Positions 3,888-47,511 of a stretch of 64,000 nt of DNA are shown here, one piece after another. The stretch comes from Amphiscolops sp. MND2022 (taxonomy: Eukaryota): NCBI GenBank assembly GCA_964187785.1, contig OZ076409.1, positions 41,356,001 through 41,420,000 of the forward strand, given 5' to 3'. A model generated the notes under the pieces. It saw only the letters and a program-made list of their open reading frames with translations. It made no database searches and had not been told where the DNA came from. Each line of letters begins with the position of its first letter. Position 1 is the stretch's first letter. The position numbers and the translations under genes were made by a program.

Positions 3888-4559
3888 AAAATACCCACGC
3901 TGAAAACGAATGAACATTTCGAATTTGAAATCATCGTCTCCTAAATCTCTAAAATAAAAAAATGTATAAAAAAGAACGAAAAAAAGAGAGAGAGCCAGAA
4001 AAAAACACAGTAACGCAACAAGAAGTAAACAAAACAGTATCGAAACCCGAAGAGCGACACCAGAATGTCATTAAAATAAAACCAGAATTTTCGCCAGAAC
4101 TAAAATCCATACCCAAATATCCATACCACCGAAATGCAGTACACCATCGAATTTGGATCCTGAGACAACACTAAAAGTTTAACATCATTACAGCAAAACA
4201 ACTTTAACAACACTTCAACTTTATCTTCTTTAACATCATCCCAGAACCACAACACGCACCTGTAAACAGAGTAACCATGAAGTATCTCCATTCTACCGCA
4301 CAAACCCAACTGTTTGGTTTAAACAAATGTAATCACAGTTCATCTTACCTGGAATTACCAACGACACAAACAAATATCACCACAACCTCGCAGCAATCCC
4401 AGAAAACGTCGCAATCAACCTGCCAATGGAAATTGAAGCCCACACACATCGAACTGTCATTTCGCGCAAAATCACCTGCCGCACAGAGACACAAATAGCC
4501 CCACTCGTGTGCGCGGCAACCATTGGGGATCCCATATGCATCCGCCTTGCCGCCAAAAT

Positions 4560-7090
4560 CGACTCACAGTAAACTATTGTTTATCGCCGACAGTGGATCT
4601 ATGGTATCAATCATCAAATCAACGCTCGTCAACGCCGATTACACCACGCCGACAACAGTGAACCTCAAAGCAGAAAACGGAGACCGTATCAAAGTTCACG
4701 GAAAAATAACAACCATAATCACAACCGCCATACACTGCCTTCGACGTAACTACATTAACGACAACATTCTAATATTGGATTTCTTCACAGACAAAGACGT
4801 GGACATTAACTGTCGGAACATAATAGTAACCGACAACGTTACCAAATTCAATTCAACAGGAAACAATTTACCCGCACCACAAAGTCACAGCCCTGTTCTA
4901 GCCGTTTCTTTGGACCTGTCTCGCACACCCGATACGTCTTTCAGAAAGAAAACGGAACACCAATTATCAATTTTCGGAGACACAGACTTCATCACGCAAT
5001 GTACTCAGAATACCACGCATCGCATCGTCGTTTCGACTCAACCTAATTTTTGTACAGCTAGAAAACTTTGCCCTGAAAAGCTATCTGTCGCTAAATCATC
5101 TTTCGACAAAATGCAATGCTCAGGAATCATCCAACCATCGAAGAGCCCATACGCATCACCTTTGCATATGATACCGAAAAAGACCCCGGAGACCGTGCGG
5201 AGACTACCGCGCCCTCAACCAAATCACAGTTCGCGATTCGTACCCACTGCCACAACTTTCATTGTTCGCACTCCACGACAAACATGTTTTCAGCCAATTC
5301 GACTTAGTCAAAGCTTATCACCAAAGTCCAATGCGCACATATAGTTGAACCACTACAACAACTTCTCAACAAAGCCCAGCCGAAAACAAAACCCACCGCC
5401 GAACGATGAATTGACAACAACAACCAGCACCAACACCTTCCATCATTTCAGAAGATCTACGCAAAGCCTTTGCCACTTTGAAGACCGCACTCGCTAATTC
5501 AACACTTCTGTATCACCTCACAGCAAACTAAACGCTCTCCCACACTACAAATGCCTCTGATACAGCCGTGGCAGCCGCCTTACACGCAATAACAGACAAC
5601 AGTAGCTGTCCTAAAGCATTTTTCTCTCGCCGACCCACTGCCGCCGAAACAAATTACAGCACATTTGATGAGGAACTCCTCGCTATCTTCGCAGCAACAA
5701 AAAAGTCAAAAATCTGATGGAAGGGCGCCATACCGATAATTTCACAGACCACACAACAATAACCAGTTCATTTCAACGAAGCCAGAACAACACTTACAAC
5801 CCTCGACAGTCTCGACAATTTTCTCTAGTAGCAGAATACACTGTCGAAATTCAACATACCTCAGGATCAACAAATGTTGTAGCGGACTGCATTTCTCGAA
5901 CACCATTTGACGACATATCATTAACCGTAGCATCAACGTCAACAGTTTTCAAGAACACCTATGATCTAACAAGAATTGCCAGCCTTCGGGGCATTTCGTT
6001 TCAATAGCAATTGTTAGAACAATATCAAGATGGAACACAGATTATCAGCATCGGAACTCGACTCTCACTTGTGATAAAAGCATTCCTCCGCGACATTGTT
6101 TGCCCGAACAATGCCGTTATCCAATCTTCACCCAATTCGACAACTTTTGCCACAGCAACTGGAAATCAACGTCATCCTCGCCCGGTTCACGTGGCCAAAT
6201 GCCCAACGCACTATCAAAGAATGGTGCCACAACTACCTCACTTGCCAACAGATGAAAATCACTCGCCATGTACATCTTCCAACACGCCAAGTCAATGAAG
6301 CCATCCCCCGTTTTACCCACGTTCACATGGATTTTGTAGGACAACTACCTGCCATCAACCATTCGCCATTCCGATACTTCGTTACCTTCATCGACAGCAG
6401 CACAACTTGAATTGAAGCCCACCCAGTACAATCTATCACTGCCGAAGATGTTTGCCACGCTTTTCTTTTATCCGGGATTTTTCGCTCTGGAGTACCATTG
6501 TACATCACGACCGACCGTGGAACCCAACTTAAAAGTCATTTATTTGCACTACTTTCTCAAACTCTGGGTTTTTACAGACTCCGTACAAGTTCATATCAAC
6601 CACAGAGCGATGGAAAAGGTGAACGTTTTCATCGAACCCTGAAAGCAATGTTAATGTTTTCAAATACCGACTGGATAGCAGCACTATCCGTAGTTTTTTT
6701 CGGATTGAGGCGCAAAACGGACAGCAACCTCATTTCACCAACAGCAGCCACAACAGGACTAGATATTCTATACCCGCCAACAGTTGCAGAAGACTGCACC
6801 CATCACTCTCGCCTTCGTCAGAACACTTCGGGACAACCTCGAACAATTTGTTTTCACAAAAGATATCAGACAACATTCAACACAAAAACTTTAATCCCGC
6901 GTGAGCTCAACAACAATAAAATTGTTTGGTTGTGCGTCGACTGAGTAAAACAACCCTTGGAAGCATCTTGCACTGGACCGCACCAGCACATCAAAATCAA
7001 CAAAGTGACATCTACAGCAACAATCAAGAAAAGTAACGATCATTTCATCGTCAGCATTCAACGCCCCAAACTATGCACAATATCATGCAC
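4560..7090 (+). pseudogene. pol: pol pseudogene (protease, partial RT, RNase H, integrase)
   Basis: FIADSGSMVSII (protease); GIIQPSKSPYASPLHMIPKK (RT); NASDTAVAAAL / AFFSRR..AETNYSTFDEELLAI (RNase H); FTHVHMDFVG, TTDRGTQ, QSDGKGERFHRTLKAML (integrase). Frameshifted, with the RT core deleted. Confidence 0.9.
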
Positions 7091-7099
7091 AATTCATCA

Positions 7100-8808
7100 A
7101 AAAGATGAAACCGCATCACCTGAAGTGATCCACAGTACCCACAGAAGTTTCTTGCTATTGCCAACAACCATACAACAGGGAAATGATCAAATGTAGCAAG
7201 AACAACTGCAAAATTGCATGGTATACTTATGACTGCGTATCACTCACAAAGCATCCACTAACAACATTGTTTTGTTCAAGTTGCAGAACTTCTTCGACAA
7301 CTAAATGAGTAACCTCCGTTAGAACCCGCAGATACAAAACCGAATGCCAGCAGATGCAGACGACAGCAGAAACTTATTGAATTTTATTCCTTTAAAACGA
7401 ATATCTGTTAGAATTTCTTTGTACCTAGAAAAAACGCAGTTGTAAGCTAGTGTAAACTGACGATCACACAGCCTTACACGTGGACTCCCTCTTGGAGGAA
7501 GGAAGCCGTGTTGGTATTCGAGGAAGGGAACTTAGTGTTACGCTATTATGTAAGCTTGTTCAGCCTAGTTAGTTTTTGTTGATAAGAAGAAAACAGCTGC
7601 CTCCTTCAAACAGCTGCGATTTTCATTTAGGTTCCGACAATTCGTCAGGAAAATCCAAAGAAACCTAAAATTATTTGATGGATTTTCTATGATTTCACCC
7701 GGGTTGGCAATCGATCAAGTCACTGCCCGTCGCCACCATTGATAATTTTCAGTGATAAACTAAATTGCCTCCACTTGTGTCCACTGGTGTTCAACCGGTG
7801 GTTGATGGTGGGTTTCCAGCATGTGCAGACATCGAATTGAGATTTCCAGACAAACTGTCTTGGAAAATTCTGTGAGAAGCAACAGCTTGTTTAAAGTTCG
7901 TCGAATGGTTTGGATGTAGCTATGTTGTTCAAAAATTATCAACTCGCACATTCGATTGCGAAAAGATGAAACCGCATCACTTGAAGTAATACACAGTACC
8001 CGCAGAAGTTTCTTGCTATTGCCAACAACCATACAACAGGGAAATGATCAAATGTTGCAGGAACAACTGCAAAATTGCAAGGTATACTTATGACTGCGTA
8101 TCACTCACAAGGCATCCACTAACAACATTGTTTTGTTCAAGCTGCAGAACTTCTTCGACATTTAAATGAGTAACCATCGTTAGAACCCGCAGATACAAAA
8201 CCGAATGCCAGCAGATGCAGACGACAGCAGAAACTTATTGAACTTTATTCCTTTAAAACAAATATCTGTTAGAATTTTTTGTACCTAGAAAAAACGCAGT
8301 TGTAAGCTAGTGTAAACTGACGATCACACAGCCTTACACGTGGACTCCCTCTTGGAGGAAGGAAGCCGTGTTGGTATTCGAGGAAGGGAACTTAGTGTTA
8401 CTCTATTATGTAATCTTGTTCAGCTTGTTTAGTTTTTGTTGATAAGAATACAACAGCTGCCTCGTTCAAACTTGGTCACAGCTGCGATTTTCAGACAATT
8501 CGTCAGGAAAATCCAAAGAAACCTAAAATTATTTGTTGGATTTTCTATGATTTCACCCGGGTTGGCAATCGATCAAGTCACTGCCCGTCGCCACCGTTGA
8601 TAATATTCAGTGATAAACTAAATTGCCTCCACTTGTGTCCACTGGTGTTCAACCGGTGGTTGATGGTGGATTTCCAGCATGTGCAGACATCGAATCGAGA
8701 TTTCCAGACAAACTGTCTTGGAAAATTCTGTGAGAAGCAACAGCTTGTTTAAAGTTCGTCGAATGGTTTGGATGTAGCTATTTTGTTCAAAAATTATCAA
8801 CTCGCACA
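7100..8808 (+). repeat. Tandem duplication of ~850 bp (7100-7950 / 7961-8808) with a 10-bp filler
   Basis: Both copies start AAAAGATGAAACCGCATCAC and end ATCAACTCGCACA. The junction filler is TTCGATTGCG. Each unit holds the PPT, the 3' LTR and flanking exon-like DNA. Confidence 0.95.
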
Positions 8809-9519: not shown

Positions 9520-11202
9520 CCATTTCTCAACCAGGGAACCCTCTGTACCAAGAGTGGCGTTAAAGTTGAAGGAATTAGCCAGCAAAACCAAAACGAAACC
9601 AAAATAAACTTTTACCATCCTCTGACAATCGAAGGTTTTGAATTTTCGAAAGTTCTCATTTTGCTTGATAACAAAAACGATTTCTTCCAATTCGACGACA
9701 GTCATTTGTTCACTGCATGCACCAGAGCTTGCCTGAAGCTGCTAATCGTTACCAATGAATGCAAAGAGCAAGATGAAGACTGGTGGCAAAATTGTTTCGG
9801 AGATTTTGTAAGAAGTGAGGTGGGCAAAATTTTAGGAGGCGACGAAGAGGAAAAAACCTCAATTTCATTCGGTACAGAGCATCCATCTGTGTTGTTCGTG
9901 GGACGGATAAAAGATTTACTTGAATCTTTCAAATGCTGCAACACTGACCAAGAACATAAATACACCGGATTCCAATCGACAGTTTATGAATATGAAAAGG
10001 ATAACCGTAAGGTTTTACAAACTGATGATATATATCTGGAACAAGATTTGAAGAAGATGAAGGAAATGGGGGTGAAGAAAATCGTTTTTGTGACCGACAA
10101 CATTTGTGCCAATAAATGGCAACATTACTTCATGACTCTTAGCTACTGGTTCTGTTATGACTTCAACAGTCGGAATACGAACTATTTTCATATAAAAGAT
10201 TTATTGCAGAATGATAGTGAAACAAACTTCCAGATGAGTTTCCGGAAAGCGCTCCTTTGTCCAATTTCAGGCCAGGTTGACGTCGAGTTTCCTCGTTTCT
10301 GGCTAAAGTTCGAGATGAATTCTTCGCCTTCTTCTGCACTGCTCAGTTGGGAAAAATGGATAGCGAAAGCGGAAAAGTGTCATGAACAAGATTATATTAC
10401 ACAAGCAATTTTCATTTACGAGTGTGGAATTGAAACTTTACTCCAGCAAATCACGTCGAACGAATCAGAAAGCCTCCTTAAAAAGAAACTTGCTGATTTA
10501 TCACTTTTAGTTGCCGATACTTACATCGATAAATTGAATATCATCGTTGAAGAAAGCAAATGTTCTTACTGGGTCCCAACCACCCAATATGAAGTATGCT
10601 TGCTGAAAGCTTTCAGACATGCTGTCAATGCACTCAAATGGCATGCCTCAGATCTCAATTTGAAGTTTAATTCAGTAGAACGAATTTTTCAAGAGATGGA
10701 AAAGTACCCAACATCAGAACTGTTTAAACGAGAAGTTAAACAAATGAACAAAGACGACACTTCAGGAATGATTTTCGAAACCAGACTGAGACATGAATCG
10801 CCTCAAATTCCGATGCAATTATTTCCTGATTTCGAAGAAGGCCTTCGCAGGCTAGAACTACTTATCTGTAACTACGAGAAAAGAAGCTTCGGGAGTACCG
10901 ACATGAACCCCACGAGAGAGAGTATTTCAGAATTGGCCCGAAATTTAGTGGTGGAAAAGGTTTGCTCTTTATCTGAAGTGGAGCCAGGTGATGATGCGTT
11001 TCAAGCGGCAATAAGCAAGATGATGGTGCAACTTGATTATCCTGTGCAACTAGCTATGATAGCACTTCATTGGGATCACAAACTGGAAGACAATTTGAAA
11101 CTTCTATCTCATGAATTGTACAATTTGAAAAAAAGTTTCGAATTAGTCAAAAGCAAACAACCAGTGTCACGCACTGGATCAAATGAAACGTTAACCCTTT
11201 GA
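9520..11202 (+). CDS. C-terminal part of an SF1 (UvrD-like) helicase/NTPase protein with a helical, TPR-like tail; upstream part disrupted
   Basis: The frame is open from 9520. HPLTIEGFEFSKVLIL and SHLFTACTRACLKLLIV resemble SF1 motifs V and VI. An in-frame TAA at 9517-9519 separates it from the upstream ORF 9325-9519, and an exon-like stretch at ~8612-8875 carries a TGA. Probably a pseudogene or 5'-truncated gene. Confidence 0.7.
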   Translation, partial: PFLNQGTLCTKSGVKVEGISQQNQNETKINFYHPLTIEGFEFSKVLILLDNKNDFFQFDDSHLFTACTRACLKLLIVTNECKEQDEDWWQNCFGDFVRSEVGKILGGDEEEKTSISFGTEHPSVLFVGRIKDLLESFKCCNTDQEHKYTGFQSTVYEYEKDNRKVLQTDDIYLEQDLKKMKEMGVKKIVFVTDNICANKWQHYFMTLSYWFCYDFNSRNTNYFHIKDLLQNDSETNFQMSFRKALLCPISGQVDVEFPRFWLKFEMNSSPSSALLSWEKWIAKAEKCHEQDYITQAIFIYECGIETLLQQITSNESESLLKKKLADLSLLVADTYIDKLNIIVEESKCSYWVPTTQYEVCLLKAFRHAVNALKWHASDLNLKFNSVERIFQEMEKYPTSELFKREVKQMNKDDTSGMIFETRLRHESPQIPMQLFPDFEEGLRRLELLICNYEKRSFGSTDMNPTRESISELARNLVVEKVCSLSEVEPGDDAFQAAISKMMVQLDYPVQLAMIALHWDHKLEDNLKLLSHELYNLKKSFELVKSKQPVSRTGSNETLTL

Positions 11203-14790: not shown

Positions 14791-14936
14791 GAGCTTTTTC
14801 TAACGTTACCGGAGTTTTTTTGGCCTCTTATCGGTTCCTCAGTCAGCTTTCAAACTCGTTCGTTTTGCCAAAATCGGAAACTTCAGAAAGAGCAGGGACG
14901 TTCCCAATTGCTACGTTGAATTTGAAAGAAAGTTTC

Positions 14937-16343
14937 TGTGATAATCCTCTTCTATGTCAGAGTTTTCGTTATTAGATGAGCGAACTCCTATAGACTTGGT
15001 TGTTTTGGATCCCGAAGGCTGTGGATCTTGTATTTCGTTGAAACCTGACCTTGGGTTTGTCATTGTTGATGCGGTTTTATTGATTTAACCTCTTCCAATA
15101 TCGCCTCAAGCTTGCTATCCATTCCATTTCTCATTTTCTCGATTTTATTGTCATTCTTTTGTTCCATTATTTGAGTCCATACTTGAATTTCACTGTTGAG
15201 TAAGCTGGGCTCAGTTAATTGATTTATAGAGCTGTTTTCACCCAAACCTTCTTGATCATTAACATTAGAATTAGTTAAAGTCGCATTACCTGGGTTTGGT
15301 GTTTCTACCTGTGTTTCGCTCATTTCTCTGCCATGGGATGGTGTTTTCAATCTCCTGGATCTTCTGTTTCTCTTATTTCCCATCTTGCTCAAGCGAAAAG
15401 GTGTATTTTGATTGTTGGGGAAGAATTTGAATTGTTTGAAAATATTTCAAATTCCAAAAGATTTTAACGGAAAACAAAGCAAATGTTGAAGGAAACTGCT
15501 TCTACAGTATTGTCAAAATGATGATTTTAGCAACTGATCGTAATGAGGGTCAAAATTGGAATGATTCCCGATGTTAGAGTTACTTTACTTTAAAAAACTG
15601 AGTGCATGACACTCCTTTTTAGAGGAATCACGCTAACCTGGGAAGCAGAAATAGAATAGCATCATCATTACGTCAGGATATTTATATCACATTCGAAACT
15701 GATGATTAGGTCCTAGAAAACCCTGGAAAACTGCATTAAAGACTTTCAAGCGCGTACTCGCAAATATAATTGAAATGTATAACACCACAGCTTATTTTAA
15801 ATGCTCATTATGCTAAAAACGTATACTGACGAGTATACGTCACTTATCAAACTGCGGGATACTGCATAGTGGTAGTCCGCATAGTGACGAGTAATCATCA
15901 GGTATCAAACTGTAGAGTGCCGCATAGTTCAACTAAAAAAAACTGCATGATTGCGATTTTTCAACAAAGCTCAAAACGTATAATGACGCATAGTCATCAG
16001 CACAAATGTTCATTTGATGGTGTTGTATTCAAAAATGATACTATTACGTAATCAATTAATCATCCGGTGATCTTTTTGGGGAGATTGTTTTATGTTTTAA
16101 CTAATTTTAGACCGTCGGTGGTGCATAGAACAAACTTATCACGGAGAAGATTGTTAAAGATTTACTTGGCATCTTTCAAAATGACAAATCAAATAAATGA
16201 CTCCCAATTAAACTGTTTACACAAGCTTTTCGAGAAGGAATCGGGTGGTTAGTGTTAGTTTTATTCATCAAGGTGAGAGCTTTCTCTGTTCTTCTTCACT
16301 CACTGCTGCACTTCGGACCCAGCACAGCTGACAGGCTGAGACA
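14937..16343 (-). repeat. 3' LTR (1407 bp, with a short deletion near its U5 end)
   Basis: Colinear with 26195-27732, and homology stops exactly at the TG and CA termini. Confidence 0.93.
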
Positions 16344-17360
16344 GTCGCGCTCTTTTGAAGATCAACAGGCAGCCTCAAACCCGTCGATGAACGCACGTGA
16401 CCTGACCCCACGATCTCTCACTGTCTCCCTGTCGTAGACGGTGGCTGTTAGGTAATTCCCCAAAGTCTCAAGGGCGACTTGATCTTATGTTTTTCCACAT
16501 TGGCTACATTTCCGGCTACATTTGGCATTACTGTAGGGAAAAGCCGGAAGTTTCATCTAACGTCGATTGGGATAAACAACACATTCGGACTATGTACCAC
16601 ATGAAAAGGAAAGCCCCATTGCACACCTGGGTAGATCGGAGGGTTGGGTTCCTGTAGGGTGTCAGGTCCTCCTCTGGATTGCAAGTGAATTATCAGAGGG
16701 GTCATGTTGGCAGCTGCAGAATTTTTGGGCACCCCTCCAAATGTTGGCATGGCGTGAGTGTCTGCAGTCTCCATATTGTACACTTGGCTGACATTGGAAT
16801 CTTGACCATTCTGCGCATTTTTTTGTTGTGGGCGAAATGCTGACGCTTCCGGTTTGTAGACCTGTGGATAAGTAGGTGGTACCGTACTAACACCGCCTGC
16901 CTGTATGCTGTTCATACGCGGAGTGGGAAGGATTACTGCAGTTGGGCGGCCATAACTGTTCACTCTCATGTTGTTCAGGCCGTCTCCTTTGAGTTCCTCC
17001 GATGATTCGTTAACCTCCTCAAATTCACTGACAACAAATGACGTGAGCGAAGCAGGGCTCAAAACCCTGCTCTCCTCGATCAGCTGCAAAAGTTCTTGTT
17101 CAATGCCAGTTCCAGCAGTATCTATGACTTGCCATGCAAGATGGGGTCATTGTTCTACGGAAAAAGCATCGCTGTTGCTGTCCCCATGAAGGTAGTCATG
17201 ACATCATGGGTCGTTTGGTTGACACTTAATCGCTCCTCCAGCTGTGGCATATTCCCGGGTTCGACCAATAACTCGTCTCCAGAGTTGCTCGAATTATATC
17301 TATCACGTCCGGTGATATTGGGGAATAGAGGGAATCCTCTTCCAGGATGAATTGCAGGCT
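16296..17360 (-). pseudogene. Sense-strand accessory ORF of unknown function (~350 codons, decayed), ending inside U3
   Basis: ORF 16553-17089 extends on both sides through a few stops and frameshifts (…RGFPLFPNITGRDR… to …VALETLGNYLTATVYDRETVRDRGVRSRAFIDGFEAAC*SSKERDCLSLSAVLGPKCSSE*). No env-like signal peptide or TM segment seen. Confidence 0.6.
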
Positions 17361-18219
17361 ACTCAATATTTTAAATTGTCAGGAAAATATTAGACAAAGT
17401 TTTATTTTGCTGAAGAAAAGAAAGTTTTTTTGTTTAGGCGACTGTATTGCAGTTTCACAAAGACCATATGGTGAGGGGTCTTGGAGTCCCTTTCGTTTAG
17501 GGGTAAAAGTCGCGAAAAAAATTGCTTGTCATCCTCTGATCTTCTCAATTCCCTCATAGGGGTTTTACGGGGTTGCTGATCACGAGTTTTAACGGCACCA
17601 AGCCATAAAAATATTCCATATTAGGTATTCAACCTTTCTTCATCACTTTACTTCCACACTTCAGCGTTCTTCACACTGTTTCATCGAAGTTTTGAATGAT
17701 ACGTAAACAATTTTAGCCTAACATCAAAGCGAAAGAAATGAAAAAGGGGTTTACGAAATTTTTCAAGATACAAAGACAAAAATATATTTATCCGAATTTG
17801 CATGACTGGAAGTAGAAAATGCAAATCATTAAAAGAAGGTTCACATTAGTTGAAACCGGCTTTATACAGGCTTTAAATGCAAGAAGCATTTTGTTTTGTT
17901 GTAGTCCTGCACTTGAAAAGTGCGTAGGGTTCTATTTTTCCAAATGATTTCTCTGAAACAAATGAAATTTGAAATGTAAATGCATAAAAATTGGTTTCTG
18001 ACTGAGATACCATATTGATAACCCATTGACAAAATAAATCACACTCAAAAGAACAACAAAGCCAAATATACTATGTATACCAGTAACATTAGGCGTTCAT
18101 TTGTATCAATTAACATGTAATTTCTTCAGTTTGTTACTAACAAAACGTAATTTTGATTCATTCACTCATTTCCATTCATTACCAATATTCATCTATCTTT
18201 TTGAACACACACAGCGAAA

Positions 18220-18620
18220 ACCGCAGGATGCCGAGTATGCGTCACTACTCGATCCGCATACTGTCGCATAGTCTTCAGTTGGCAATTCCGCACACTGCCG
18301 CATACTCGTCACTGCAGTTCCGCATACTTCCGCATACTCGTCACTAGTCAATCCGCATACTGCCGCAAACTCTCGCGTAGTAAATCGTTCCAATTGCTTG
18401 ACATTAATGTATTCGTGTGTATTCTCACGTCCAAAGGTATGATGAGTCAATCAATCACGCTGGCAGACGTGATTGACATTTTATTAGCCAATCAGATTAC
18501 AGGATTTGCGCAAACTTGTCTCATTTGCCTTTTTGCCTTGTTTCGTTATGCCACGCTTTTTGTATTGTCTCATTCATCAAGCTGTCATATAGTCAAGGCA
18601 GTATATCAGTCCAGAGTTAA
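18220..18620. promoter_or_regulatory. Putative internal (divergent) promoter with CCGCATAC motif array, CCAAT box and Inr-like TCAGT
   Basis: Eight CCGCATAC-like motifs (18254-18370), AGCCAATCAG (~18487) and TCAGT (~18606), lying between two divergently oriented accessory ORFs. Confidence 0.55.
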
Positions 18621-18758
18621 AAAAACATTGCAGTTCAATCTACTCTTTTACCCTCTACCAATTTCAGATTTACTTTCAGATTTATTTAATTTAGTTGTGG
18701 ATTGTAGATTCTAGTTTTGATCACTTTCCATTATCCCATTCTTTACGTCGCTTTCGGG

Positions 18759-21602
18759 ATGGAGGCACACCAGGAACAGAACCCTTCTGGAAAGAGGAAA
18801 GCGCGAAAAGGACAACCACCTCAACATCTTGGCGGAGGGAGAGAATATAATCTGTCTTTCTGGTCTGATCCAGGCAAGTTCAACTTTTAGTATAATTTTA
18901 TTTTAGTCCATTTGGAGAATTTTTGGTTTTCTGAGTTGGCCAGACTCATAAGTGAAAATGATCCGTGAATCTTCAGATCAATTTCAGATTTTTTGAACGC
19001 TTCCGTTTCTATCTTCTGAGTGGCCTCCGGTTTTTTATTCATTTTCTGTCACTGCGTCCGCTTTCAGTCAATTTAAACGGCTTCCACTTGCTCATATTTG
19101 TTTTGGTAATCGGATGATTTGTTTCAGTTGAACTAGGAACCAGTGGATTATCCCCGATCCAATCTCCGATTAAGGTTTATACACCTCTGCAGACATCCTC
19201 TCCCAAATCTTCTACTGCTCCGATTGCACAAGAATCTCCTAGTGTTGCTCCGCTTCACATTCACGAAGAAGTTAGCGTAGAAACAGAAGCTGTGGACACC
19301 CCCTTGGTTGCTCCAACAACGACCCCAGTTGTTCATTAAGAATCTGTAGAGGAGAAAAACTTCGCTACGACTCCAGCTAATCCTAACCTAGAGGCGACTC
19401 CCACAGAAAACATGGAGGGCTCTTTTGATAACATTAGTCGTGAAATACTAGAGGACTTCATAGACCCTGAAACGGCTCAAGCGATTTCTTCACATTATAG
19501 TCAATACATCCTTCAAGCTGCTAACCCCGGGCTTGGACATGCGATGTCTCAGATCGCTGGTCAAAACGTGACACTTGATAGTGAGCTGTCAGCAATACCT
19601 TCAGATGACCAAGGTGGGTTCTGTACCGTTGTCATACCCGAGGATACCCATAGCAGTATCAACATTACCAGGAGAGAAACCCTTACACTAACCAGTGTTC
19701 TGGAACGAATCCCACAAGAGTATGTCCTTAGTGAGGAAACTGGTGTTGGACAAGCGTTGACACTTAATATTGTAAAAAACATAGAAACAGCTCCTCTCGT
19801 TGCAACATCTAGTCAAGAGGAAATGCGGCAACATGATTTCGTCCGATGTTCACCCAGATGAACCGCAAGACACTCAGCTGGGAGAGGGAAACGTCGTAGA
19901 CCAAAATATTCTTTGACTGGTGCAATGTTCAAAAAGCACCCATTTTTTGAGATTTCCTGCTACCGGGGCCATTGATAAAGACAAGAAGCCCCACAAATGG
20001 TGGTGTAGAGTATGCAGAGTTGAACTCTCTCTAACGAGTAAAGGTAGCCTTGAATTACTGTCTCACTACAAATCCGAGTCTCAATTAGTGAAAGAACACA
20101 GGATGCGCATGGAGAAACCTGGTATGACCCTCTTCGACAGAGAAGGGCGAGTGATCTACAGGATCCACTACAAGAGGCCAAGAAAAAGTCCAAAAACACG
20201 TACCCAATCGCTCCTCAGCTAGACGTATGTCGACCCCTCGTGGGACAAGAAAACGTTCCATACTTCAATGCAGTTAACAGTCCTACCGATAAAGTCCTTT
20301 CGCAAATTTGTATCCTCGAGCACGGACTCCGTCACGGAGGACACATCAGAAGTCTAACCGGTATCTATGATAAACTTTCACGGTTGGCTTCCAGCGGTCA
20401 GATGTGTGAACAAAATTGGAGTCGGCAAGGACTTTTAGTTAGTAACTCATTTTCAGTTGATAGTTTCCATTTTCCGTTCAAACTGTATCTCCTTCAGGAC
20501 AAAAACTTTGATAAGTGAATTTACTCTCAACCCCCTTGTTTAATCATAGGGTCCGGACATGTTCTGTTTGTTTCACAGGGAATTCTCGTCTACATGTTCC
20601 GAGAGTTGATTGGATATTGTGCCACTGAGATCACCACATTTGGGCACTACTCTCTCGCTTTACAACACACCCCAACAGCAACATACCTCATACTCAATTT
20701 CTGGTCTGGGAATGTATTACACCACGTTTGCTTGGGCAGTGCCCCTCGGGGGATGTTGCTACCAAGGAAAATTTTGGCCACAATTTCATCATTCGTTAGC
20801 CTTTTTGAAGAAGCATCATCATGTGTTGCTCATTTTGACTTCGGCGAGAAGCTGAGTGAATGTCTAACTAGCTGCCTCCCAGGGGAATAACAATCTGCCC
20901 TTGTCAGTACTTATGGGCCAGAGGAATTCGAAAAGAGCCTCGCGTTCCTGACTTCACAAATCATCGAGCGCCACGATGTTCGAACTATTTTAGACTTTCT
21001 CTTGATGAAGTTGAGAACAGCTTTGGACCGAGATTGGCTGAAGAAGTTACCACTACTGTACAAAGTAACTAATTTACCATACTAACTTTGGTTATATGCT
21101 CAGGTCCCCTTTATGTGATTCTTCCTTTTCTTTTAGAGTGTAATTCGCGTGGAGTATTCTCTTCAAGATGCGTCATCAATCATAGAAGCCCTATCTAACA
21201 ACTGGGACCATGTACCTGACCACCTCAATCAAGTTGCGAGGCTACCGAGATCCCAAATCAGTAAGCCGGGTTTTCCGCCTCTTGGGCCGTGGGGCTGACT
21301 TGTTGGCAGATTGGAAGTTCTCTGTCTGGAACTTCATGAGAGGAAGTGGTGTTCGGAGAACGGCCTTATTGGAAAAACTTGAGACTGGGTACCGTAAGGC
21401 GGTTTTGCAACATGATAAGTCGATTATTTCATCAACTTCAACAACCCCTAGTGTCAGCAGGATGGGTAGTGTGAACAGTTCCCCTTCTGCGGATCCTAGT
21501 CTGAGCAGGATTAATGTACCCCTTGTTCGCTGTTCCACTTTTTCAGTTGAAGATACCGTCAAGGGGGCCTACTCCAAACTTGCAAAAAGCAAGCAAAACT
21601 AA
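18759..21602 (+). pseudogene. Antisense four-exon accessory gene (~790 aa): low-complexity N-terminus, BED-like zinc finger, hAT-transposase-like body
   Basis: Exons 18759-18873, 19128-20437, 20579-21064, 21137-21602. Introns GCAAGT..TTTCAG, GTTAGT..TCACAG and GTAACT..TTTTAG all preserve phase. Contains KWWCRVCRVELSL..GSLELLSHYKSESQLVKEH. A few stops (19337, 20888) and frameshifts. Confidence 0.8.
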
Positions 21603-21789
21603 ATGTGGATTGTAGTATATAACTGATTACTGTTTTCTTTTTGTTCTTTGGTTTGTTTAGTCTTGGATCATCGTATTCATTTTGATGAAACAATCTTTTG
21701 TGATTAAAGAAATGAAAACTGTAATGGGTTGAAGTGTATATCAAAAAATAGGAGGTGAAGAGATACGACTCTGCTGCAATTCTTTTTAA

Positions 21790-24700
21790 TATCGGAAAGA
21801 GTCAGAGTAGTTTGGGTTGGGATTTGGACGTAAATTGTAATTTCCACCACAGGTGTTTATGGATTCTTCTTGCAATGGGGTATTTTGGTCATCATCACTA
21901 GTTTGTTGTGGATTTTCATCTGCATGAATTTCATGGTTGTGATCTGGTTCAGTGGTCTGTTCCACTCGGCTCCCCCACTATTTTGTCAAATTTCGCGGGA
22001 GGGAGGGTGGTTATGTTCGGGTTCTCCAATTGGTAGGTATTCAATATCTCCTACTTTTTGTGAATACTCTGGGGGTTATCCTCAAACGTGTTAGGACCAA
22101 AATTTGTATTCCAAGATTGTGCGTATAGATCATCATGGTCTATGGGCATTTGATTGTCTTTTTGCCAGTCTGTTTCTTGGACAAAAATATCCGCTAAAGG
22201 AGATTGTGGTGTAAATTTTCGTATACAAATTCGGTGCAGCAGTTGGGTTTTTCTGGTTCCAAGTCTTCTAACTGTGTAATTATTGTTAGGAAGCACTTTT
22301 TTCGACTTTGTATGGCCCTTGCCATTTGAATTCCCGAAAAAGTATTTTTGTTTCTTGAGTATCTGCTTTCGGGTTTAAGATGTAGCAATAATCCGTTGTT
22401 TCAAGAGGAGAAGCTTTTGCAATATTATGCAATAATAAACAATAATAGGCTTTGTATTTGAGATAGGATTGCATTATATTCTTTTTCGTTTGGTCAAGAA
22501 GTACCTTCATGCGTCTCTGTATTTCTTCTGCTAAATCTGTTTGTGGTAGATATTTTGGATTAGGGTTGTATCCAAGTTTGTAATCGACTATGTTATATGG
22601 TATTCTCCCATGAAAAACTCGTGAAGGTTCACAACCTAATGATGCATGGTAGGTTGCGTTGTGATTTAGTAATGCTAAAGGGAGATATTTGTGCCAATTG
22701 TGCCGAAACTCTCCCGTTGCTGCTTTAAGTTAAGTTTTTACGGAAGCATGTGTTCTTTCTAGGATTCCAAGTCTTTGAAGAGTTTGAAAAACGGTGATAA
22801 TCGTTCAGAGAGTTTCGAAATGTACTTGCGGTAATAGTTTAAGAATCCTATATACCGTTGAAGTGCTTTTTTGGGTTTGGGAAAATTCAGTTTTGACAAG
22901 AAATCTTTGACTTTGTCGGCTTGCGGGGCGACACCTTCAGGTGTGATTGTACGGCCCAAGAAGTCGACTTGTTTAACTCCGAAGTGACATTTGACATCAT
23001 TAGTTTCAATCCAGCATTTCGGATACATTCAAACACAGTCCTGATGTTTGCACATAGTTGTTTTGCATCGTTTGCTGCATATCCAATGTCGTCTACATAT
23101 TGTGCTCATTGATCGGCTTTATTGGCTTTATCAAGAAACTCTCTCATGGAACTTGAAAATGCCGAGAGCGATTTGCTCAACCCTTGTGCAAGTCTGCGGT
23201 AAGCAAAGGTTCGGCTTGCAAAATTGAAAGCAAGCATTTGAATGTATTGATAATCAGCCATTTGAAGGCAATGGTAAGCCTGGGAGCAGTTTAGCTTGCA
23301 AAAAAGCTTCTTTCCTGCCATGTGTTGTGCTGCATCCGATAAGGTGCTCACCGGGTGGTTGTTATTGATGTAGTTTTCTGTGATTAAGTTGTTGATCGTT
23401 CTGAGGTAGACTAGAAGTCTAAGACGTCCCTTGGGTTTTCGTTGAGCGAAGATAGGACTAGCGTTTTTTGAAAATGGTAGAGTGGTTATGATTCCATATT
23501 TATGTAGAAGAGCAAGTTCTACTGTAATGTCGTCTTTGAGATTGATTGGTGTTGGTAGGTTTTGACTATATGCTGGTCTATCGTCGTTTGGTGTGCGTTT
23601 GACTTTGAATTCACGGTTTGTGCCGATGTCAAAACGATGTCTAGCGAAAATGTCGTGAAACTCCATGAGTATTTCTTCAATTTGTTGTCGTTGTTCTCGA
23701 CTGAGCGTTGTGTCAGACCAGTCAAAGTTTGAAAGAAATGATTCCTTCGATGTTTCGCTGTCTTGGGGATTGAGTTTCTCAAGTTGTTCGAGTTCTAGAA
23801 GTTCTGTGTAAATTCTTTGTTGTATTGGGGTATACGTTGTAGGATCTCCCGGATCTTCTGGTGTTGGGAACCAATATGATTCTTGTTCTGAGTTTTGAGA
23901 AGGAACTTTTAAAAGTTCATTTATGTAGATCTCGGTTGTATCTTCATGTTGTATCATGAAAGATAGCATCGCTGGATCCACCGGCTGTATATGTTTGATT
24001 TGTTCTGGGGTGAGGATTTTGGAATCTGCTAGATGTGTATCACAAATTATCGTGTACGGGAGTTCAGAGAAATTGAATATTTGGTACCCGTAAGCATTGT
24101 TGTTTACTGTACTGAGGGACGATGTGATGAAAATACTATCGTTGTGTTCGAATTGAGTTGAAGGTGTGACTATTCTTGTTGCGTCATGGTCCAACAGGTG
24201 TTGAATTCTGCTCGCAATGGCGAGGGTTTCGCCTGGTGGCATTGTAAATGTGCTTTCCGCAAACAGTGGGGTTGCTTGTCGTATTGCTATTTGAGTGTCA
24301 AGTTTGAGTTGCATTGACAGGTATGGGAAAGTCAAGATGCCGTGGGTGACATCAAAAATTGCATTATTTCTGCGGAGAAAGCAGAGACCAGTTAAAGGTT
24401 TGCGTAAATTTTTCATAATGATGAAATTCTCTCGTAACATGAAATCAGCTACTTCAAATTCTAAAACTACTGTGCCGATTGGAACTTCGAGTTGTCCATT
24501 GGCCACCATAATTTGTCGGTGGGCCAGTTTTTTTTATTGATTCATTGGCAAGTAGTTTGATTTTTTTCAAGACTTGCTCAGGGATTGCACTTGTCAGGGC
24601 TCCTGTATTGATGATTCCATCGGATGTGAGATTTTAGAAGTCCATCAGCATATATTACATATGACGTTTGCGTTTCAATGTTAGAGAGGTTGAAAACGGT

Positions 24701-25047
24701 AAGTAAGACAAGTTACGTTCCTTGTCGAACTGTATGTGATTAGCAATATCATTGTCCAAAAGGGGTTGTTTGCTTTCATTGCAAGAAGAATTTGTTGTTT
24801 CACAAGTATTTGTGATTGTGTTGTGGTGAATTTTTGGTGTTACGTCCTTATTTGGGCTCTGTGTTTTATGTGGGTTTGTGAAGTAATTGTCTGATGCATT
24901 GCTCAGGAGTTCGTAGAGGGACTCCTGGGGGATGTGTTGTTCGGTTGTTTGTGGTGTAGTTGAAGGTGAGTTGGGTTCAGTCGTCAGTTGTTTGAGTTTT
25001 ATGCTTATAGAATCCACTTGATGCTGCCAGTCGTCTTGTGGTTTCAA
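21790..25047 (-). pseudogene. pol: pol (protease, RT, integrase C-terminal half); RNase H and integrase N-terminus deleted at ~22770
   Basis: DGIINTGALTSAIP (protease, D to N); ASPIFAQRK, LFCKLNCSQAYH, YRRLAQGL, YVDDIG, VDFLGRTIT (RT). The frame then jumps to ERTHAS..NWHKYLPLALL (integrase) and ends YNLRPNPNPNYSD. Confidence 0.93.
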
Positions 25048-25082
25048 TGGTTCTTCAATTGTATTTGTAAGGCGTGGCGTTT

Positions 25083-26771
25083 CTAGTTTAAATCCTTCGA
25101 AAAAGATTGTTGTTGTCGTTCCATTTTTGGTTTTGTTGGCTTTTTAGCTCGTTTATAGTTTTCAATGACCTTTTTCTGGGCTTCTGTTAGGGTCCATTTG
25201 GGCGGTCGGTTTTTCATGCTTGCGCGAAAATAGCAATTTTCTTCATCATGTCCAGGTGTGTTGCAATTTTGGCATTCTTCGGCATCTGGGTCTTCCTCCA
25301 GTTTGCGAGGTTTGGCTAATTTGGGGCAGTCTGCCATCATGTGACCTGTCTCTTTGCAGTAACGGCATTGGTCATTTTTGAGGGTTTTGTTAGGTACTGC
25401 TTTTGGTGTTTGTGTTTTAGCTTTTTCAATTTGTTTCTTTTTGGCTCTCTCTTCATTTTGTTCTTTTTTCGTAACTGGCATCTGGGTTTTGACCAGAGGT
25501 TTGTCAGATTCTAAACTGTTAAGTTCCATCTCTCGTTCGAGATGTTTGACAATTTGATGGTAGGTTCCATTTTCAAGGTATGCTTGATTAAAGTACTTTT
25601 TGAGATGGGGATGCATTTTGGCATAGAGTAAATTTTCTATCATTTGATATGCAGTCTCCCCAAAGGCTTTCTCAGCACTCTCTTGTAGTTCTTCTAAGAA
25701 ATCTAGAAGTTTCTGGTTTTCTGGATCAAATGCAAGTCTGTTGAATCTGTGTTTCGCTGACGCACTAGATTCCGGTTTAACATATTTTCTGCGGAAGACC
25801 TTTAACATGTCTTCTAAAGTCGTTTTGGGAGTTCGTTGGATGTTTTTAAACGTTTTGAGTGCCAAACTCTTGAGATGTGCTGGGAAATGGTTGATTTTCA
25901 TCTCCCCAGTTAGGTTTGGTTGCATTTTTAGGGTTGTGTGAAACAAGTCTTCGAAGTATTCAAATTTCTAGTTTCTGTCGTTTTTCCCGTTGAAGGTCAG
26001 TGTGTTCTTTGGGTGGAAAAGTGATGGTTGTGTGTTTTTGTTGGCCAATCTTTCGATTGCAATTGCAATTTGGTTGACTGGATAAAGTGGTTTTGTTGTC
26101 AAATGGGACAGATTTTGTTCTGCATTTGATCCTTTTGTGTCATTTGGGTTTTGAGAATTTTGTCAATGGAGTTGTCGGTTGGCTCCTGTCACCATGTGAG
26201 AATCCTCTTCTATGACAGACTCTTCGTCAGAATGTATAGTTACTTCTACAGCAGATTCACTCCGGAATTGAGGTTTTGTAGGATGATTCAGATCTTTCAT
26301 TTTAGAAGTTCTAAGAGGAAAGTCGTAATTTTCCGAATCTGAGTTTTCGCTATTAGTTGCGCGAACTCCTATAGACATGGTTGTTTTGGATCCCGAAGGC
26401 TGTGGATCTTGTATTTCGTTGAAATCTGACCATGGGTTTGTCATTGTTGATGCGGTTTTATTTGATTTAACCTCTTTCAATATCGCCTCAAGCTTGCTAT
26501 TCATTTCTTCTCTCATTTCCTCAATTTTTTTGTGATTCTTTTGTTCCATTGTTTGAGTCCATACTTGAATTTCACTGTTGAGTAAGTTGAGCTCAGTTAA
26601 TTGATTTATAGAGCTGTTTTCACCAAAACCTTCTTCTTCTTGAACATTAACATTAGACTTAGTTAAAATCGCATTATCTGGGTTTGGTGTTTCTACCTGT
26701 GTTTCGCTCAATTCTATGTCATGAGATGGTGTTGTCAATCTCCTGGATTTTCTGTTTCTCTTATTTCCCAT
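25083..26771 (-). pseudogene. gag: gag with two CCHC knuckles; ATG lies inside the 5' LTR
   Basis: MGNKRNRKSRR.. (ATG 26771) reads through ..EEDSH/MVTG.. at the LTR/PBS junction. One stop (26163) and a frameshift precede the capsid-like region, followed by CRYCKETGHMMADC and CQNCNTPGHDEENC. Confidence 0.88.
26177..26194 (-). other. Primer binding site (tRNA-Leu-like)
   Basis: TGGTGACAGGAGCC directly follows the LTR terminal CACA. It has one mismatch in 12 to the tRNA-Leu(CAG) complement TGGTGTCAGGAG, so the tRNA identity is tentative. Confidence 0.75.
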
Positions 26772-27732
26772 CTTGCTCAAGCGAAAAGGTGTTGTTTGAT
26801 TGTTGGGGAAGAATTTGAATTCTTTGAAAGTGTTTCAAATTCCAAAAGATACTTATGGAAAACAAAGCAAATGTAGAAGGAAACTGTTTTTACAGTATTG
26901 TCGAAATGATGATTTTAGAAACTGATCGTGATGAGGGTCAAAATTGGAATGATCCCCGATGTTAGAGTTACTTTACTTTACAAAACTGGGAGCATGACAC
27001 TCCTGTTTAGAGGAATCACGCTAACCTGGGAAGCAGAAATAGAATAGCATCATCATTACATCAGGATATTTATATCACATTCAAAATTGATGATTAGGTC
27101 CTAGAAAACCCTGGAAAACTGCATTAAAGACTTTCAAGCGCGTACTCGCAAATATAATTGAAATGTATAACACCACAGCTTATTTTGAATGGTCATTATG
27201 CTAAAAACGTATACTGACGAGTATACGTCACTTATCAAACCGCAGGATACCGCATAGTGATAGTCCGCATAGTGATGAGTAATCATCAGGCATCAAACTC
27301 TAGGATGCCGCATAGTTCAACTATAAAAAACGCATGATTGCGATTATTCAACAAAGCTCAAAACGTATAATGACGCATAGTCATCAGCACAAATGTTCAT
27401 TTAATGGTGTTGTATTCAAATAAGATACTATTACGTAATCAATTAGTCATTCGTTGATCTTTTTGGGTAGATTGTCTCAAGTTTTAACACATTTTAGGCC
27501 TTCTGTGGTGCATAGAACAAACTTATTACGGAAAAGATTGTTAAAGATATTTACTTGGCGTCTTTCAAAATGACAAATCAAATAAATCACCCCCAATTAA
27601 AATGTTTACACAAGTTTTTCGAGAATGAATCGGGTGGTTAGTGTCAGTTTTAATCATCAGGGTGAGAGCTTTCTCTGTTCTTCCTCAATCACTGCTGCAC
27701 TTCGGACCCAGCACAGCTGACAGGCGGAGACA
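26195..27732 (-). repeat. 5' LTR (1538 bp)
   Basis: TG...CA termini, TATAAATA at 27067-27074 (minus strand), flanked by the TSD and the PBS. Confidence 0.93.
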
Positions 27733-27737
27733 GTTTC

Positions 27738-33103: not shown

Positions 33104-33451
33104 ATAAAATCATCAAGTCAGTTATGTAACGAAGAAGGAAAACGAGTTCTGCGAAAAATTTTGATCCTCCACAGCGGTCAAAAATTCCATATTTTGACAA
33201 TACGTCTATCCATTGTTGTAAAAAAATTGAAAAATTCAATTTCAACAATTAGAATGCACAAAAGGGGGAAATATTGATCAATATTTCCCCCTTTTGTGCA
33301 TTCTAATTGTTGAAATTGAATTTTTCAATTTTTTTACAACAATGGATAGACGTATTGTCAAAATATGGAATTTTTGACCGCTGTGGAGGATCAAAATTTT
33401 TCGCAGAACTCGTTTACCTTCTTCGTTACATAACTAACTTGATGATTTTAT
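33104..33451. repeat. 348-bp spacerless palindrome
   Basis: 174-bp arms centred on TGA|TCA (33277/33278); two mismatches seen. Confidence 0.97.
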
Positions 33452-38550: not shown

Positions 38551-38785
38551 GTTGTTTCAAGCCTACTTTAGACAACTACTTTGCAAAGTTGCAGTATGAT
38601 TTGTGTAAAAAACCAGTGGTTTTTTACACAAGTCATACTGCAACTTTGCAAAGTAGTTGTCTAAAGTAGACTTGAAACAACAATGATTTAGCATAATAGA
38701 CAAGCTCTTCAATGCTTCCAAGCTTCGTTCTGGCAGAACGAAGCTTGGAAGCATTGAAGAGCTTGTCTATTATGCTAAATCATTG
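38551..38785. repeat. Two abutting palindromes (38551-38681 and 38681-38785)
   Basis: 65-bp arms around G38616 (two mismatches) and 52-bp perfect arms around G38733, sharing base C38681. Confidence 0.97.
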
Positions 38786-39029: not shown

Positions 39030-39601
39030 TGTAACAGGAATTACAGTACGAGTTGCATCGTTCAAAGGATCTTGCTACGAGCTTACTACGATAAGCGTAT
39101 TGGTGCTGTGAGGGTCAACCTGGAATCATTATCACTTAGTAACTTCCCATGAAATTTCGTGGATTGCTCATAAGTAATTGTCATGGATGAGTCTGTGATG
39201 CCATGATGCATGTCCTCAAAGATTCTTTAAATTTGAAATAGCTTGAACTCCTAACCCAAGTAATTAGCAGATGTAATTCTAATTGAAAGCTAATTATTCT
39301 AGAAGAAACTTCATTTAATATATCCTGTAACAAGCTTCTTAGATTCATCCTGTTGCTGTCACATTGTTAATTGATGAAACCTACCCTAGTTAATAGAATA
39401 TATCTACTCGGAGAAAATGAGAAGTCATCCTGACGATCGGTCTTCCCTCTAGCACTTCAAGAACTGAGATCTCAGAAAAAGATTGAACTTAGAACTAGCT
39501 AGCTACAGGACTTAAAGTAAGACGACTTCGCTGTTAAAATAATAGACTTCTTGTGTCAGTAATAAAACATCTCAAAGAAACAACAACACAACTTTTTAAC
39601 A
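39030..39601 (+). repeat. 5' LTR (572 bp)
   Basis: TG...CA, AATAAA at 39561; 39194-39601 is near-identical to 47104-47511. Confidence 0.9.
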
Positions 39602-39796
39602 GTTGGTGCGACCAAGAAAATTCTTCTTTCTCTCCCACTCATTTCACAACTCTACAATTTTTGTACACCTTTTCTCGACTTTCTCATCCGATATCTCTTT
39701 GTTCGACACACAGTTTCTCCACCTCTCAATATCGCCTACCGTTATTAACTTCAACGTTGCAACCAATTTCTATTCGAAATTGATTCGTGTTGCTAT

Positions 39797-39925
39797 GGTT
39801 CTGATTACGTCCTCTCACGTAATTCCTGTCAGTTACACTTCTTGGTTCTGACTGCGTTTCTCAACGTAATTCCTGTCAGTCATATTTCTTGGTTCTGACT
39901 ACGTTTCTTAGCGTAATTCCTGTCA
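39797..39925 (+). repeat. Three 47-bp tandem repeats in the element leader
   Basis: GGTTCTGA..CGTAATTCCTGTCA units start at 39797, 39844 and 39891. Confidence 0.9.
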
Positions 39926-40331
39926 AAAGATTTTTCGTTCCAACCACCTCTGAGTGAATTCGTGTTGGCTTTCTCTTGTTCCTCCGTTCCAACCGCAGGA
40001 CTGCGATACGTGTTGGCCCTTCTACAGTGCTATCCAGCGATTCCTGCTAGTAAATTATCCTTGGTTCTAGCCGCTTGGATCAACTTTAAAGTTGGCACAC
40101 CTATATAACTTATATTTTACACATAACCTTAACCTAATACATCTTTCTTCCTCTTTAATAGTACACACACCATACAAAATTCTTTGCAAACTGCTTTACG
40201 GATCCAAATACACAACAATTACAAATATATAACAAATATATCAAACAATTCTTTATATAACTCTCATTTTTCACACATATACATAACAAAATTTTATACA
40301 AATTTCTTGACATACTCCTAATAGAACTTCA

Positions 40332-40460
40332 ATGTACATGCCGTCATCAGTAGACATTGTAGTTAAGCTCATTGTCTGCGTTTGGTTCTTTGTTGCTATA
40401 GTTGCCGGTCTTGCACTTTTTCGTGACAAATTCCTAATTTCATTTATACCAAAATTTTAA
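40332..40460 (+). CDS. 42-aa hydrophobic small ORF upstream of gag
   Basis: MYMPSSVDIVVKLIVCVWFFVAIVAGLALFRDKFLISFIPKF*, with a single TM-like stretch. Confidence 0.35.
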   Translation: MYMPSSVDIVVKLIVCVWFFVAIVAGLALFRDKFLISFIPKF

Positions 40461-40479
40461 GATACAACCTTTCCTTTCT

Positions 40480-40713
40480 ATGTTAACAAATATAATACTA
40501 CCTCTTTTTGGACTGCGTAGTATTTACCACACCTTTTATACACTTAAACAATATATACAAAACCCATTTCTTCTTTTCCTAAGTACAGCACTTACAATAC
40601 TTTTACAAGTTATATTCATAGACCAAATCTTACTATATAATTCACAATACAATACAAAATATCTTCTTTTCCAATACATCTATCCTTTATGGCAATCTTG
40701 TTATACTAACTAA
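40480..40713 (+). CDS. 77-aa hydrophobic small ORF upstream of gag
   Basis: ATG-initiated, contains FLLFLSTALTILLQVIFI, and ends 15 nt before the gag ATG. Confidence 0.35.
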   Translation: MLTNIILPLFGLRSIYHTFYTLKQYIQNPFLLFLSTALTILLQVIFIDQILLYNSQYNTKYLLFQYIYPLWQSCYTN

Positions 40714-40728
40714 ATTTTACACCATATA

Positions 40729-43700: not shown

Positions 43701-44270
43701 TTATCGACACAACTCTCGCCCTAGATACAGATCACGCTCCTATTCCAGAGATAACAAATTTACAAACTATACAAATTCATACAGACCACCTTCAAGACCA
43801 AGAGACTCTAGATTTTCTAGATCTCGTTCTTACTCCAATTCCAGAAACAAAATTAATATGATACAACAACAAGATCAATCTGACCCTATTAACTTTGAAG
43901 TACACATGTATCACCCAACAGCAATGGCGAACGCTGTAACACCTACAAGTTGGTTTTATACACTATATGTTCATACACCATCAAGTATAGCACAAAGAGA
44001 CAACCCATCTAGATTGGAAATTGCATTCCTTCTAGATAGCGGTGCTTCCATTTCTGTATTAAATTACCCAACATACATAACTCTTACAAAACTCTTAGAT
44101 ATCAGACCAAATCATAATTCTGACGTTGGACTTGGTCGAAATTCCAAAACATTAACAGTTGCAAACCAAACTGAAGTTCCTATTTTACATTATGCCAATA
44201 TAATTTTGAACACCACTATTGATGAAAATTCTCGTTACTTTTCAGTAACATCTATTAAATGCATCTATCG
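40729..44270 (+). pseudogene. gag: gag-protease (long N-terminal extension, T/Q/N/P-rich linker, capsid, degenerate knuckle, RS-rich tract, protease)
   Basis: FDGLDHNYTPEEYLQRIEAR, LTGTALSWY, CSNCHRTNH, RYRSRS repeats, FLLDSGAS; a few in-frame stops. Confidence 0.88.
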
Positions 44271-47018: not shown

Positions 47019-47103
47019 ACTTTAACATTTGAGACAAAAGCTTTTAGAACTCCTCAAACCCAAAGTGCATATATGTAATTTTAATTTTAAATTCCCGGTT
47101 GAT

Positions 47104-47511
47104 TGTGATGCCATGATGCATGTCCTCAAAGATTCTTTAAATTTGAAATAGCTTGAACTCCTAACCCAAGTAATTAGCAGATGTAATTCTATTTGAAAGC
47201 TAATTATTCTAGAAGAAACTTCATTTAATAAATCCTGTAACAAGCTTCTTAGATTCATCCTGTTGCTGTCACATTGTTAATTGATGAAACCTACACTAGT
47301 TAATAGAATATATCTACTCGGAGAAATTAAGAATTCATCCTGACGATTGGTCTTCCCTCTAGTACTTCAAAAACTGAGATCTCAGAAAAAGATTGAACTT
47401 AGAACTAGCTAGCTACAGGACTTAAAGTAAGACGACTTCGCTGTTAAAATAATAGACTTCTTATGTCAGTAATAAAACATCTCAAAGAAACAACAACACA
47501 ACTTTTTAACA
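47104..47511 (+). repeat. 3' LTR, missing its first 164 bp
   Basis: Matches 39194-39601. Confidence 0.92.

Follow-up and report, generated by a model that had tools for sequence, protein, structure and literature searches.

A Gypsy retrotransposon family of Amphiscolops sp. carrying a conserved multi-exon antisense gene of probable DNA transposase origin

Structure of the element

The window was a stretch of 64,000 nucleotides from Amphiscolops sp. MND2022 (contig OZ076409.1, designated C1, positions 41356001-41420000), and the assembly searched (GCA_964187785.1) comprised 1.07 Gb. As originally predicted, the element was bounded by a pair of LTRs with TG..CA ends and by a perfect 5-bp target site duplication (TSD), GTTTC, in the flanking sequence (14932-14936 and 27733-27737). 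The 5' LTR (26195-27732, minus strand) had its full length of 1538 bp. The 3' LTR (14937-16343, minus strand) lacked, near its outer end, a 123-bp stretch that was present in the 5' LTR and in five sister elements. The two LTRs were 93.2% identical over 1406 columns (K2P 0.072). A candidate primer binding site starting with TGG lay directly after the 5' LTR (26177-26194, minus strand), and a purine-rich tract adjoining the 3' LTR (16344-16356, minus strand) was a weak candidate for the polypurine tract.

The minus-strand location of gag-pol was confirmed. The gag gene (25083-26771) encoded zinc knuckles, started inside the 5' LTR and contained two in-frame stops; pol (21786-25143) comprised a protease region, the RT and the integrase C-terminus, with stops and frameshifts. 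About 510 codons, covering RNase H and most of the integrase, were gone from pol at 22771/22772. Pfam analysis detected Retrotrans_gag (weak), zf-CCHC and RVT_1 (weak) in the window, and RT_RNaseH, Integrase_H2C2 and rve, in that order, in sister elements; for the protease, Pfam gave no match in either. Direct LTRs with TG..CA ends, a TSD of 4-6 bp, and gag followed by a pol of the order PR-RT-RNase H-integrase assigned the element to the Ty3/Gypsy group.

The antisense gene and the second ORF

On the plus strand, a gene convergent with pol was found, as had been proposed. Exon 1 (18759-18873) had a GC donor in the window and a GT donor in another subfamily. Exon 2 (19128-20437) encoded a variable, acidic and Ser-rich N-terminus, a basic NLS-like run and a CxxC..H..H zinc finger. 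Exon 3 (20579-21064) encoded an RNase H-like fold resembling a DDE core, in which the catalytic acids were not conserved. The original prediction of three introns was correct in its coordinates (intron 1, 18874-19127, GC-AG; intron 2, 20438-20578, GT-AG; intron 3, 21065-21136, GT-AG), but its fourth exon (21137-21602) spanned a deletion junction near 21245, and five introns and six exons were present in other copies. The deletion, of about 1.5 kb, reached from within exon 4 to a point two thirds of the way through exon 6 and had taken introns 4 and 5 and exon 5 with it, so that a truncated exon 4 (21137-21245) ran into the 3' third of exon 6 (21243-21602), which encoded a basic C-terminal tail and ended at the stop codon. 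The multi-exon gene existed, but its frame was broken here, with one stop plus frame changes in exon 2 and one stop in exon 3. In the window, the family is represented by a copy that is both dead and recombinant.

A second accessory ORF, overlooked in the original prediction, was located on the minus strand at 16300-17365 (start approximate), in the same orientation as gag-pol and diverging from the antisense gene. It had an acidic N-terminus and a C-terminal CxxC, terminated inside the 3' LTR and was frameshifted in the window. Open frames of about 350-390 codons recurred among 151 matches, and dN/dS was 0.21-0.29 in one pair. Of 24 loci, 22 (both distant ones among them) had a V/I-V/I-D-I/V-S motif, which we take to be SIM-like, near the beginning of the ORF. 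Pfam gave no match for this ORF, and in comparison with the env class no hydrophobic helix was evident by eye.

Between the two genes, a conserved non-coding block (18442-18496, plus strand) was found about 290 bp upstream of the ATG of the antisense gene, as a candidate internal promoter. It contained TGAGTCA and CCAAT motifs and was conserved in 5/5 aligned sequences.

Conservation of the gene within the family

A DNA search with positions 18400-21750 returned 697 candidates, and the best identities among the 40 scored were 69-78% over the main block. Twenty of 30 returned loci were aligned, leaving out those that were partial or internally duplicated. In these 20 loci, the gene had five introns and six exons, the first five of 115, 1313, 486, 135 and 82 nt and the last of about 1.1 kb, and amounted to about 1,080 codons in the subfamily of the window. 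At the first six sites, 18-20 of the 20 copies had intact splice dinucleotides, and at the next two 19/19 did; donor 1 was GC in 15 copies and GT in the remaining 5. Seven of the 19 other copies were free of stops and frameshifts across the measured part.

The exons were under strong purifying selection, in answer to the dN/dS check suggested with the original prediction. Between subfamilies, NG86 dN/dS was 0.062-0.069 over about 630 codons (three pairs), with 0.04-0.06 in the small exons 4 and 5 and 0.25-0.35 in the variable N-terminus, while shifted reading frames used as a control gave 1.6-2.2. For exon 6, dN/dS was finite in only 5 of 91 near pairs (0.085-0.20), because synonymous sites were saturated.

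Family copies carried the gene at the same position: in all 20 exon-6 loci sampled, the integrase lay immediately downstream on the opposite strand. These loci represented one per open-frame class, so that intact copies were favoured in the sample. On contig C1, an exact integrase motif was found 1107-1292 bp from 43 of 64 exon-6 motif matches, against 0.5 expected, and all 43 pairs were convergent; the 21 unpaired matches included three known family members and about ten chance matches. Conversely, 43 of the 88 integrase motifs on C1 were paired with the near-clade exon-6 motif, which is absent from the distant clade described below. Each of three elements selected by pol and read carried the antisense gene (3/3). 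Degenerate motifs matched the genome 461 times for exon 6 (control, 73) and 904 times for the integrase (control, 0).

Independent insertion of sister elements, a check suggested with the original prediction, was evident from their TSDs. Ends could be located in five of the seven elements tried, the outer LTR end of the other two not being found in the stretch examined. Each of the five had a TSD of its own (four perfect, one with a mismatch), and these and the window TSD had no common sequence. No terminal inverted repeat (TIR) bounded the gene among the 25 longest inverted repeats listed for the window and two sisters, consistent with the initial observation. Linkage, independent insertions, selection and the conserved exon-intron layout were, taken jointly, practically certain. 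Position, TSDs, the missing TIR, selection, the conserved splice sites and the promoter-like block supported the original view of a retroelement that stably transmits a multi-exon gene.

Second clade, mosaic history and repeat arrays

A second clade was reached through the remote homologue P0227; it was about 54% identical to the window family in the integrase and about 20-25% in the last exon. The gene position was the same in both deep clades. Trees of the integrase and of exon 6 (27 rows) both showed a deep split of 8 versus 19 rows, and the separating branch was about 8 times longer in the gene tree (a quick method) than in the integrase tree (bootstrap not settled).

In L034 and L105, two loci of the distant clade, the zinc-finger exon was likewise followed by a phase-0 intron. 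The next exon was 621 nt, exactly the length of near-clade exons 3 and 4 together, exon 5 was 82 nt (in L105 after a one-base donor shift), and the last intron was in phase 1. Locus L105 also had a phase-1 first intron and three more predicted introns in the N-terminal region. Exact exon lengths at such divergence are hard to explain without splicing, and the antisense gene is very probably spliced, as judged from sequence. The matching lengths also imply intron gain or loss within the element.

The window copy was a mosaic. On the left (16.3-18.4 kb) it was 79-87% identical to L032/L033, and on the right (21.7-22.6 kb) 79-90%; identity to these loci fell to 60-67% in the middle part (18.7-21.7 kb), where it was 70-84% identical to L002/L003 and their neighbours. 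In trees, the window integrase grouped with L032/L033 (99/99, set of 9) and the window gene with L028/L030 (97). One junction fell at the repeat array and promoter, the other at the integrase tail, positions that would fit template switching.

The array upstream of the antisense gene (18215-18378), in or near which the left junction of this cassette swap lay, had a 33-bp period. A cluster of repeats with a CGCATA/CGTATA core was present in the 3' LTR (15813-16000), with a counterpart in the 5' LTR (27201-27387), and a common repeat core was shared by the LTR, the intergenic array and intron 5 of near-clade copies. The core of the 33-bp repeats was looked for in L104 and L105 and was absent from both, which weakened the arrays as a universal binding target. 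In the near clade only, the protein may have its targets in the arrays of the LTR, the promoter and intron 5.

Domains and fold of the antisense protein

In the comparison of the predicted core, the match to the Hermes transposase spanned 153 of 162 residues, whereas integrase matches covered only about 80, and a separate exon likewise ranked Hermes first. A long helical region was predicted after strand 5 of the core. The zinc finger, N-terminal to the core and presumably BED-like, had an invariant CxxC and near-invariant His residues in 55 rows; Pfam gave no match for it, and hhalign paired it with the hAT finger at a probability of just 0.3%. At model-inferred positions, the columns expected to hold the DDE triad held Leu/Gln and Gly/Asp/Asn, and neither a CxxH after strand 5 nor an invariant Glu after the LCLP-like helix was seen. 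The gene is probably of transposase origin; given that origin, the loss of catalysis appears somewhat more probable still.

Pfam searches with the exons and homologues, PDB sequence profiles, Foldseek with exon 6 against PDB and BFVD, and Atlas with distant-clade exon 3-4 were blank or insignificant. At the C-terminus, the dimerisation domain PF05699 had no Pfam match and a weak Atlas lead (0.90). HMM and hhalign comparisons with seven hAT frames of the same genome were insignificant, these frames being Ac-like and maybe of the wrong subgroup. PF14291 had no match in the genome, where the controls were blank too, and a JGI metagenome scan with one alignment gave 154 pattern matches, none of which was confirmed.

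Proposed mechanism and alternative explanations

The explanation we favour, with reasonable though limited confidence, is that this Gypsy clade carries between pol and the 3' LTR a fixed accessory cassette, in which the antisense protein, probably transposase-derived, would serve as a nuclear, DNA-binding activator or anti-silencing factor. In the cassette, two divergent genes would flank an internal promoter region. The ancestor of the antisense gene was probably a cut-and-paste transposon from the insertion-domain DDE group (hAT/Mutator-like) that inserted antisense into an ancestral element and would then have lost its ends and catalytic residues and been retained. Introns antisense to the genomic RNA are not spliced from it and hence survive reverse transcription. 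The LTR-driven genomic RNA would hold the gene in this orientation, its introns invisible to the spliceosome, and the gene could be copied along with the element because they are not removed beforehand. The internal promoter would yield a spliced mRNA, and the protein would most likely be nuclear, bind DNA and act in trans on its own family, by analogy with TnpA and VANC. Purifying selection along element lineages suggests that the protein aids the spread of the element, and sequence-specific DNA binding is suggested by the zinc finger, the NLS-like runs and the probably inactive transposase scaffold. These features and the TnpA and VANC precedents made an activator or anti-silencing role preferable to integration targeting or a non-transposase origin. 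Regulation of its own element by the antisense protein is, as a separate claim, a candidate role that we put slightly below even. More tentative is the full scenario of a class I lineage that permanently domesticated a class II transposase as a trans-acting sequence-specific factor, in a multi-intron antisense unit with intron gain and loss, a SUMO-interacting partner ORF and cassette exchange between subfamilies.

The same transposase-derived gene might instead act at integration, as a tether or nuclear-import cofactor of the pre-integration complex that steers insertion sites. Such a role, which has been proposed for plant antisense ORFs in the available part of a review (PMC7264820), would suit the NLS-like basic runs, the zinc finger and the DNA-binding ancestry, but the lack of anything in common among the six TSDs and the promoter-like block of the gene's own make it unlikely, and the gene evolves several times faster than the integrase, which fits a conflict with host silencing at least equally well. 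A similarly low probability was given to a real spliced accessory gene from outside class II, either a host gene that was captured or a duplicate of an integrase-like domain of RNase H fold; against it stand the short integrase matches beside the nearly complete Hermes match, the helical region after strand 5, the separate exon that also ranked Hermes first, and a finger placed N-terminal of the core.

Improbable, too, is that the protein matters little and that the cassette is kept for antisense RNA regulation, for a service to the host, or as a drive or addiction factor. Fewer than 200 bp separated the stop codons of the gene and pol in the window and in L034, so that the transcripts may overlap, and roles of dsRNA are raised in the accessible part of the plant review (PMC7264820). 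However, dN/dS near 0.07 indicates that the amino acid sequence is the conserved quantity, and selection acted along element lineages, in numerous subfamilies whose synonymous sites are saturated. A nested DNA transposon, carried within the Gypsy element as a passive passenger, was largely refuted and is very improbable. The transposase-like fold is compatible with it, and nested insertions are common, Coe1 being an example (PMC2426827, in the part available), but no TIR among the listed repeats bounded the gene in three elements, its position was the same in both deep clades, the catalytic acids were not conserved, and purifying selection operated under element transmission, whereas a passive passenger would decay neutrally.

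Comparison with known systems

HTLV-1 HBZ is a spliced antisense regulatory gene with one intron that survives reverse transcription; it encodes a small bZIP protein, uses a promoter in the 3' LTR and overlaps sense genes. The gene described here, by contrast, is large, has many introns, occupies its own non-overlapping region and has an internal promoter-like block.

In the available parts of the plant literature, a conserved ORF lies antisense between pol and the 3' LTR of the Gypsy elements Retand, Grande and RIRE2; tandem arrays occupy this region too, an internal promoter is described for Grande gene23, and the ORF is suspected to act in the nucleus or on DNA (PMC11963269, PMC7264820). 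TRP28 or Smc domains are present in these ORFs, for which the authors, as far as these parts go, saw no TE similarity supporting a nested-TE origin (PMC11963269, PMC7264820). The word "intron" is absent from both main texts. Like Retand, the present family has such an antisense ORF in most copies; it differs in its five or more introns, about 1,080 codons, DDE-transposase-like fold and second divergent ORF, and TRP28 (PF04195) had no Pfam match in the gene or its homologues.

According to a preprint, transposases regulate cognate copies, domesticated ones lose DDE, and TnpA and FAR1/MUG are sequence-specific regulators, many of such proteins being transposase-derived without DDE residues (10.64898/2026.08.24.746577, consulted in part); VANC anti-silencing proteins work via tandem repeats (PMC5735166, likewise). 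These act in DNA transposons or as host genes, whereas the gene here lies in a Gypsy element and its role is predicted; "retrotransposon", "LTR" and "Gypsy" do not occur in the main text of the preprint. Coe1 of Beta vulgaris is a multi-exon DNA transposase gene between LTRs, for which the authors favoured a probable CACTA insertion into a decayed Copia-like element, with no evidence of co-transmission in the part available (PMC2426827); in contrast, hundreds of copies, a fixed position and purifying selection were found here. Gypsy-type elements of bdelloids capture non-env extra ORFs modularly, their ORF3s being GDSL, DEDDy, env-like or coiled-coil and lying downstream of pol (PMC5408684, available part); "intron" and "transposase" are absent from its main text. 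No report of a Gypsy clade stably carrying a selected, multi-intron, transposase-like antisense gene was found in the literature covered, which was incomplete, with most subscription journals and Repbase outside its scope.

According to the available parts of the plant studies (PMC7264820, PMC11963269), neither the origin nor the function of antisense extra ORFs in LTR retrotransposons is known; for the ORF of this family, capture of a DNA transposase is a plausible origin. The family suggests that one kind of mobile element adopted the protein of another kind as its own helper, and that spliceosomal introns can persist and turn over within a reverse-transcribed genome. Self-encoded counter-silencing and intron gain or loss become testable in a family that has hundreds of copies, many subfamilies and natural cassette swaps. 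Repeat annotation would miss such genes or miscall them as host genes.

Gag and pol of the main Gypsy element

The gag start of the main Gypsy element fell within the LTR, so that the part of gag located there (26195–26771, about 575 bp of coding sequence) was present twice, at both ends of the element. A comparable short frame was observed at L104 and L105, two loci carrying other copies or relatives of the element. Gag and pol lay in different frames and overlapped at 25083–25143, and a heptamer resembling a slippery site was located upstream of the gag stop; the overlap is presumably crossed by -1 frameshifting.

Rearranged copies of the Gypsy family

Several family copies were rearranged. 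In the copy at L031, the integrase and exon 6 of the antisense gene were tandemly duplicated; in that at L017, exon 2 was fused to the integrase by a deletion; and the copies at L016, L021, and L024, all on contig C6, contained duplications inside the antisense gene. The match pattern at G000:C4:67278-74171, on another contig of the same assembly, suggests two tandem elements with a single LTR in common.

Other repeats and reading frames in the window

The second LTR element (39194–47512) had LTRs of 409 bp that were 97.6% identical, a long gag region matching Retrotrans_gag (41239–44328), and a tandem duplication of approximately 970 bp (44723–46659); no match was found between its 5-bp flanks. 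Decayed Gypsy remnants with integrase and RNase H fragments occupied 4499–8808 and ended in two head-to-tail copies of approximately 850 bp (94% identical), which are probably tandem LTRs.

A near-perfect palindrome of 348 bp (98.9%) was located at 33104–33451, and two adjoining near-perfect palindromes of 131 bp and 105 bp at 38551–38785; these are possibly foldback or MITE-like elements. Several direct repeats of 140–440 bp (74–79% identity), spaced about 4–5 kb apart at 55279–61457, were interpreted as an old duplication or repeat pair. Two further reading frames gave domain hits: one of 560 aa (9520–11202) to superfamily-1 helicase C-terminal, and one of 297 aa (48247–49140) to the NERD domain.
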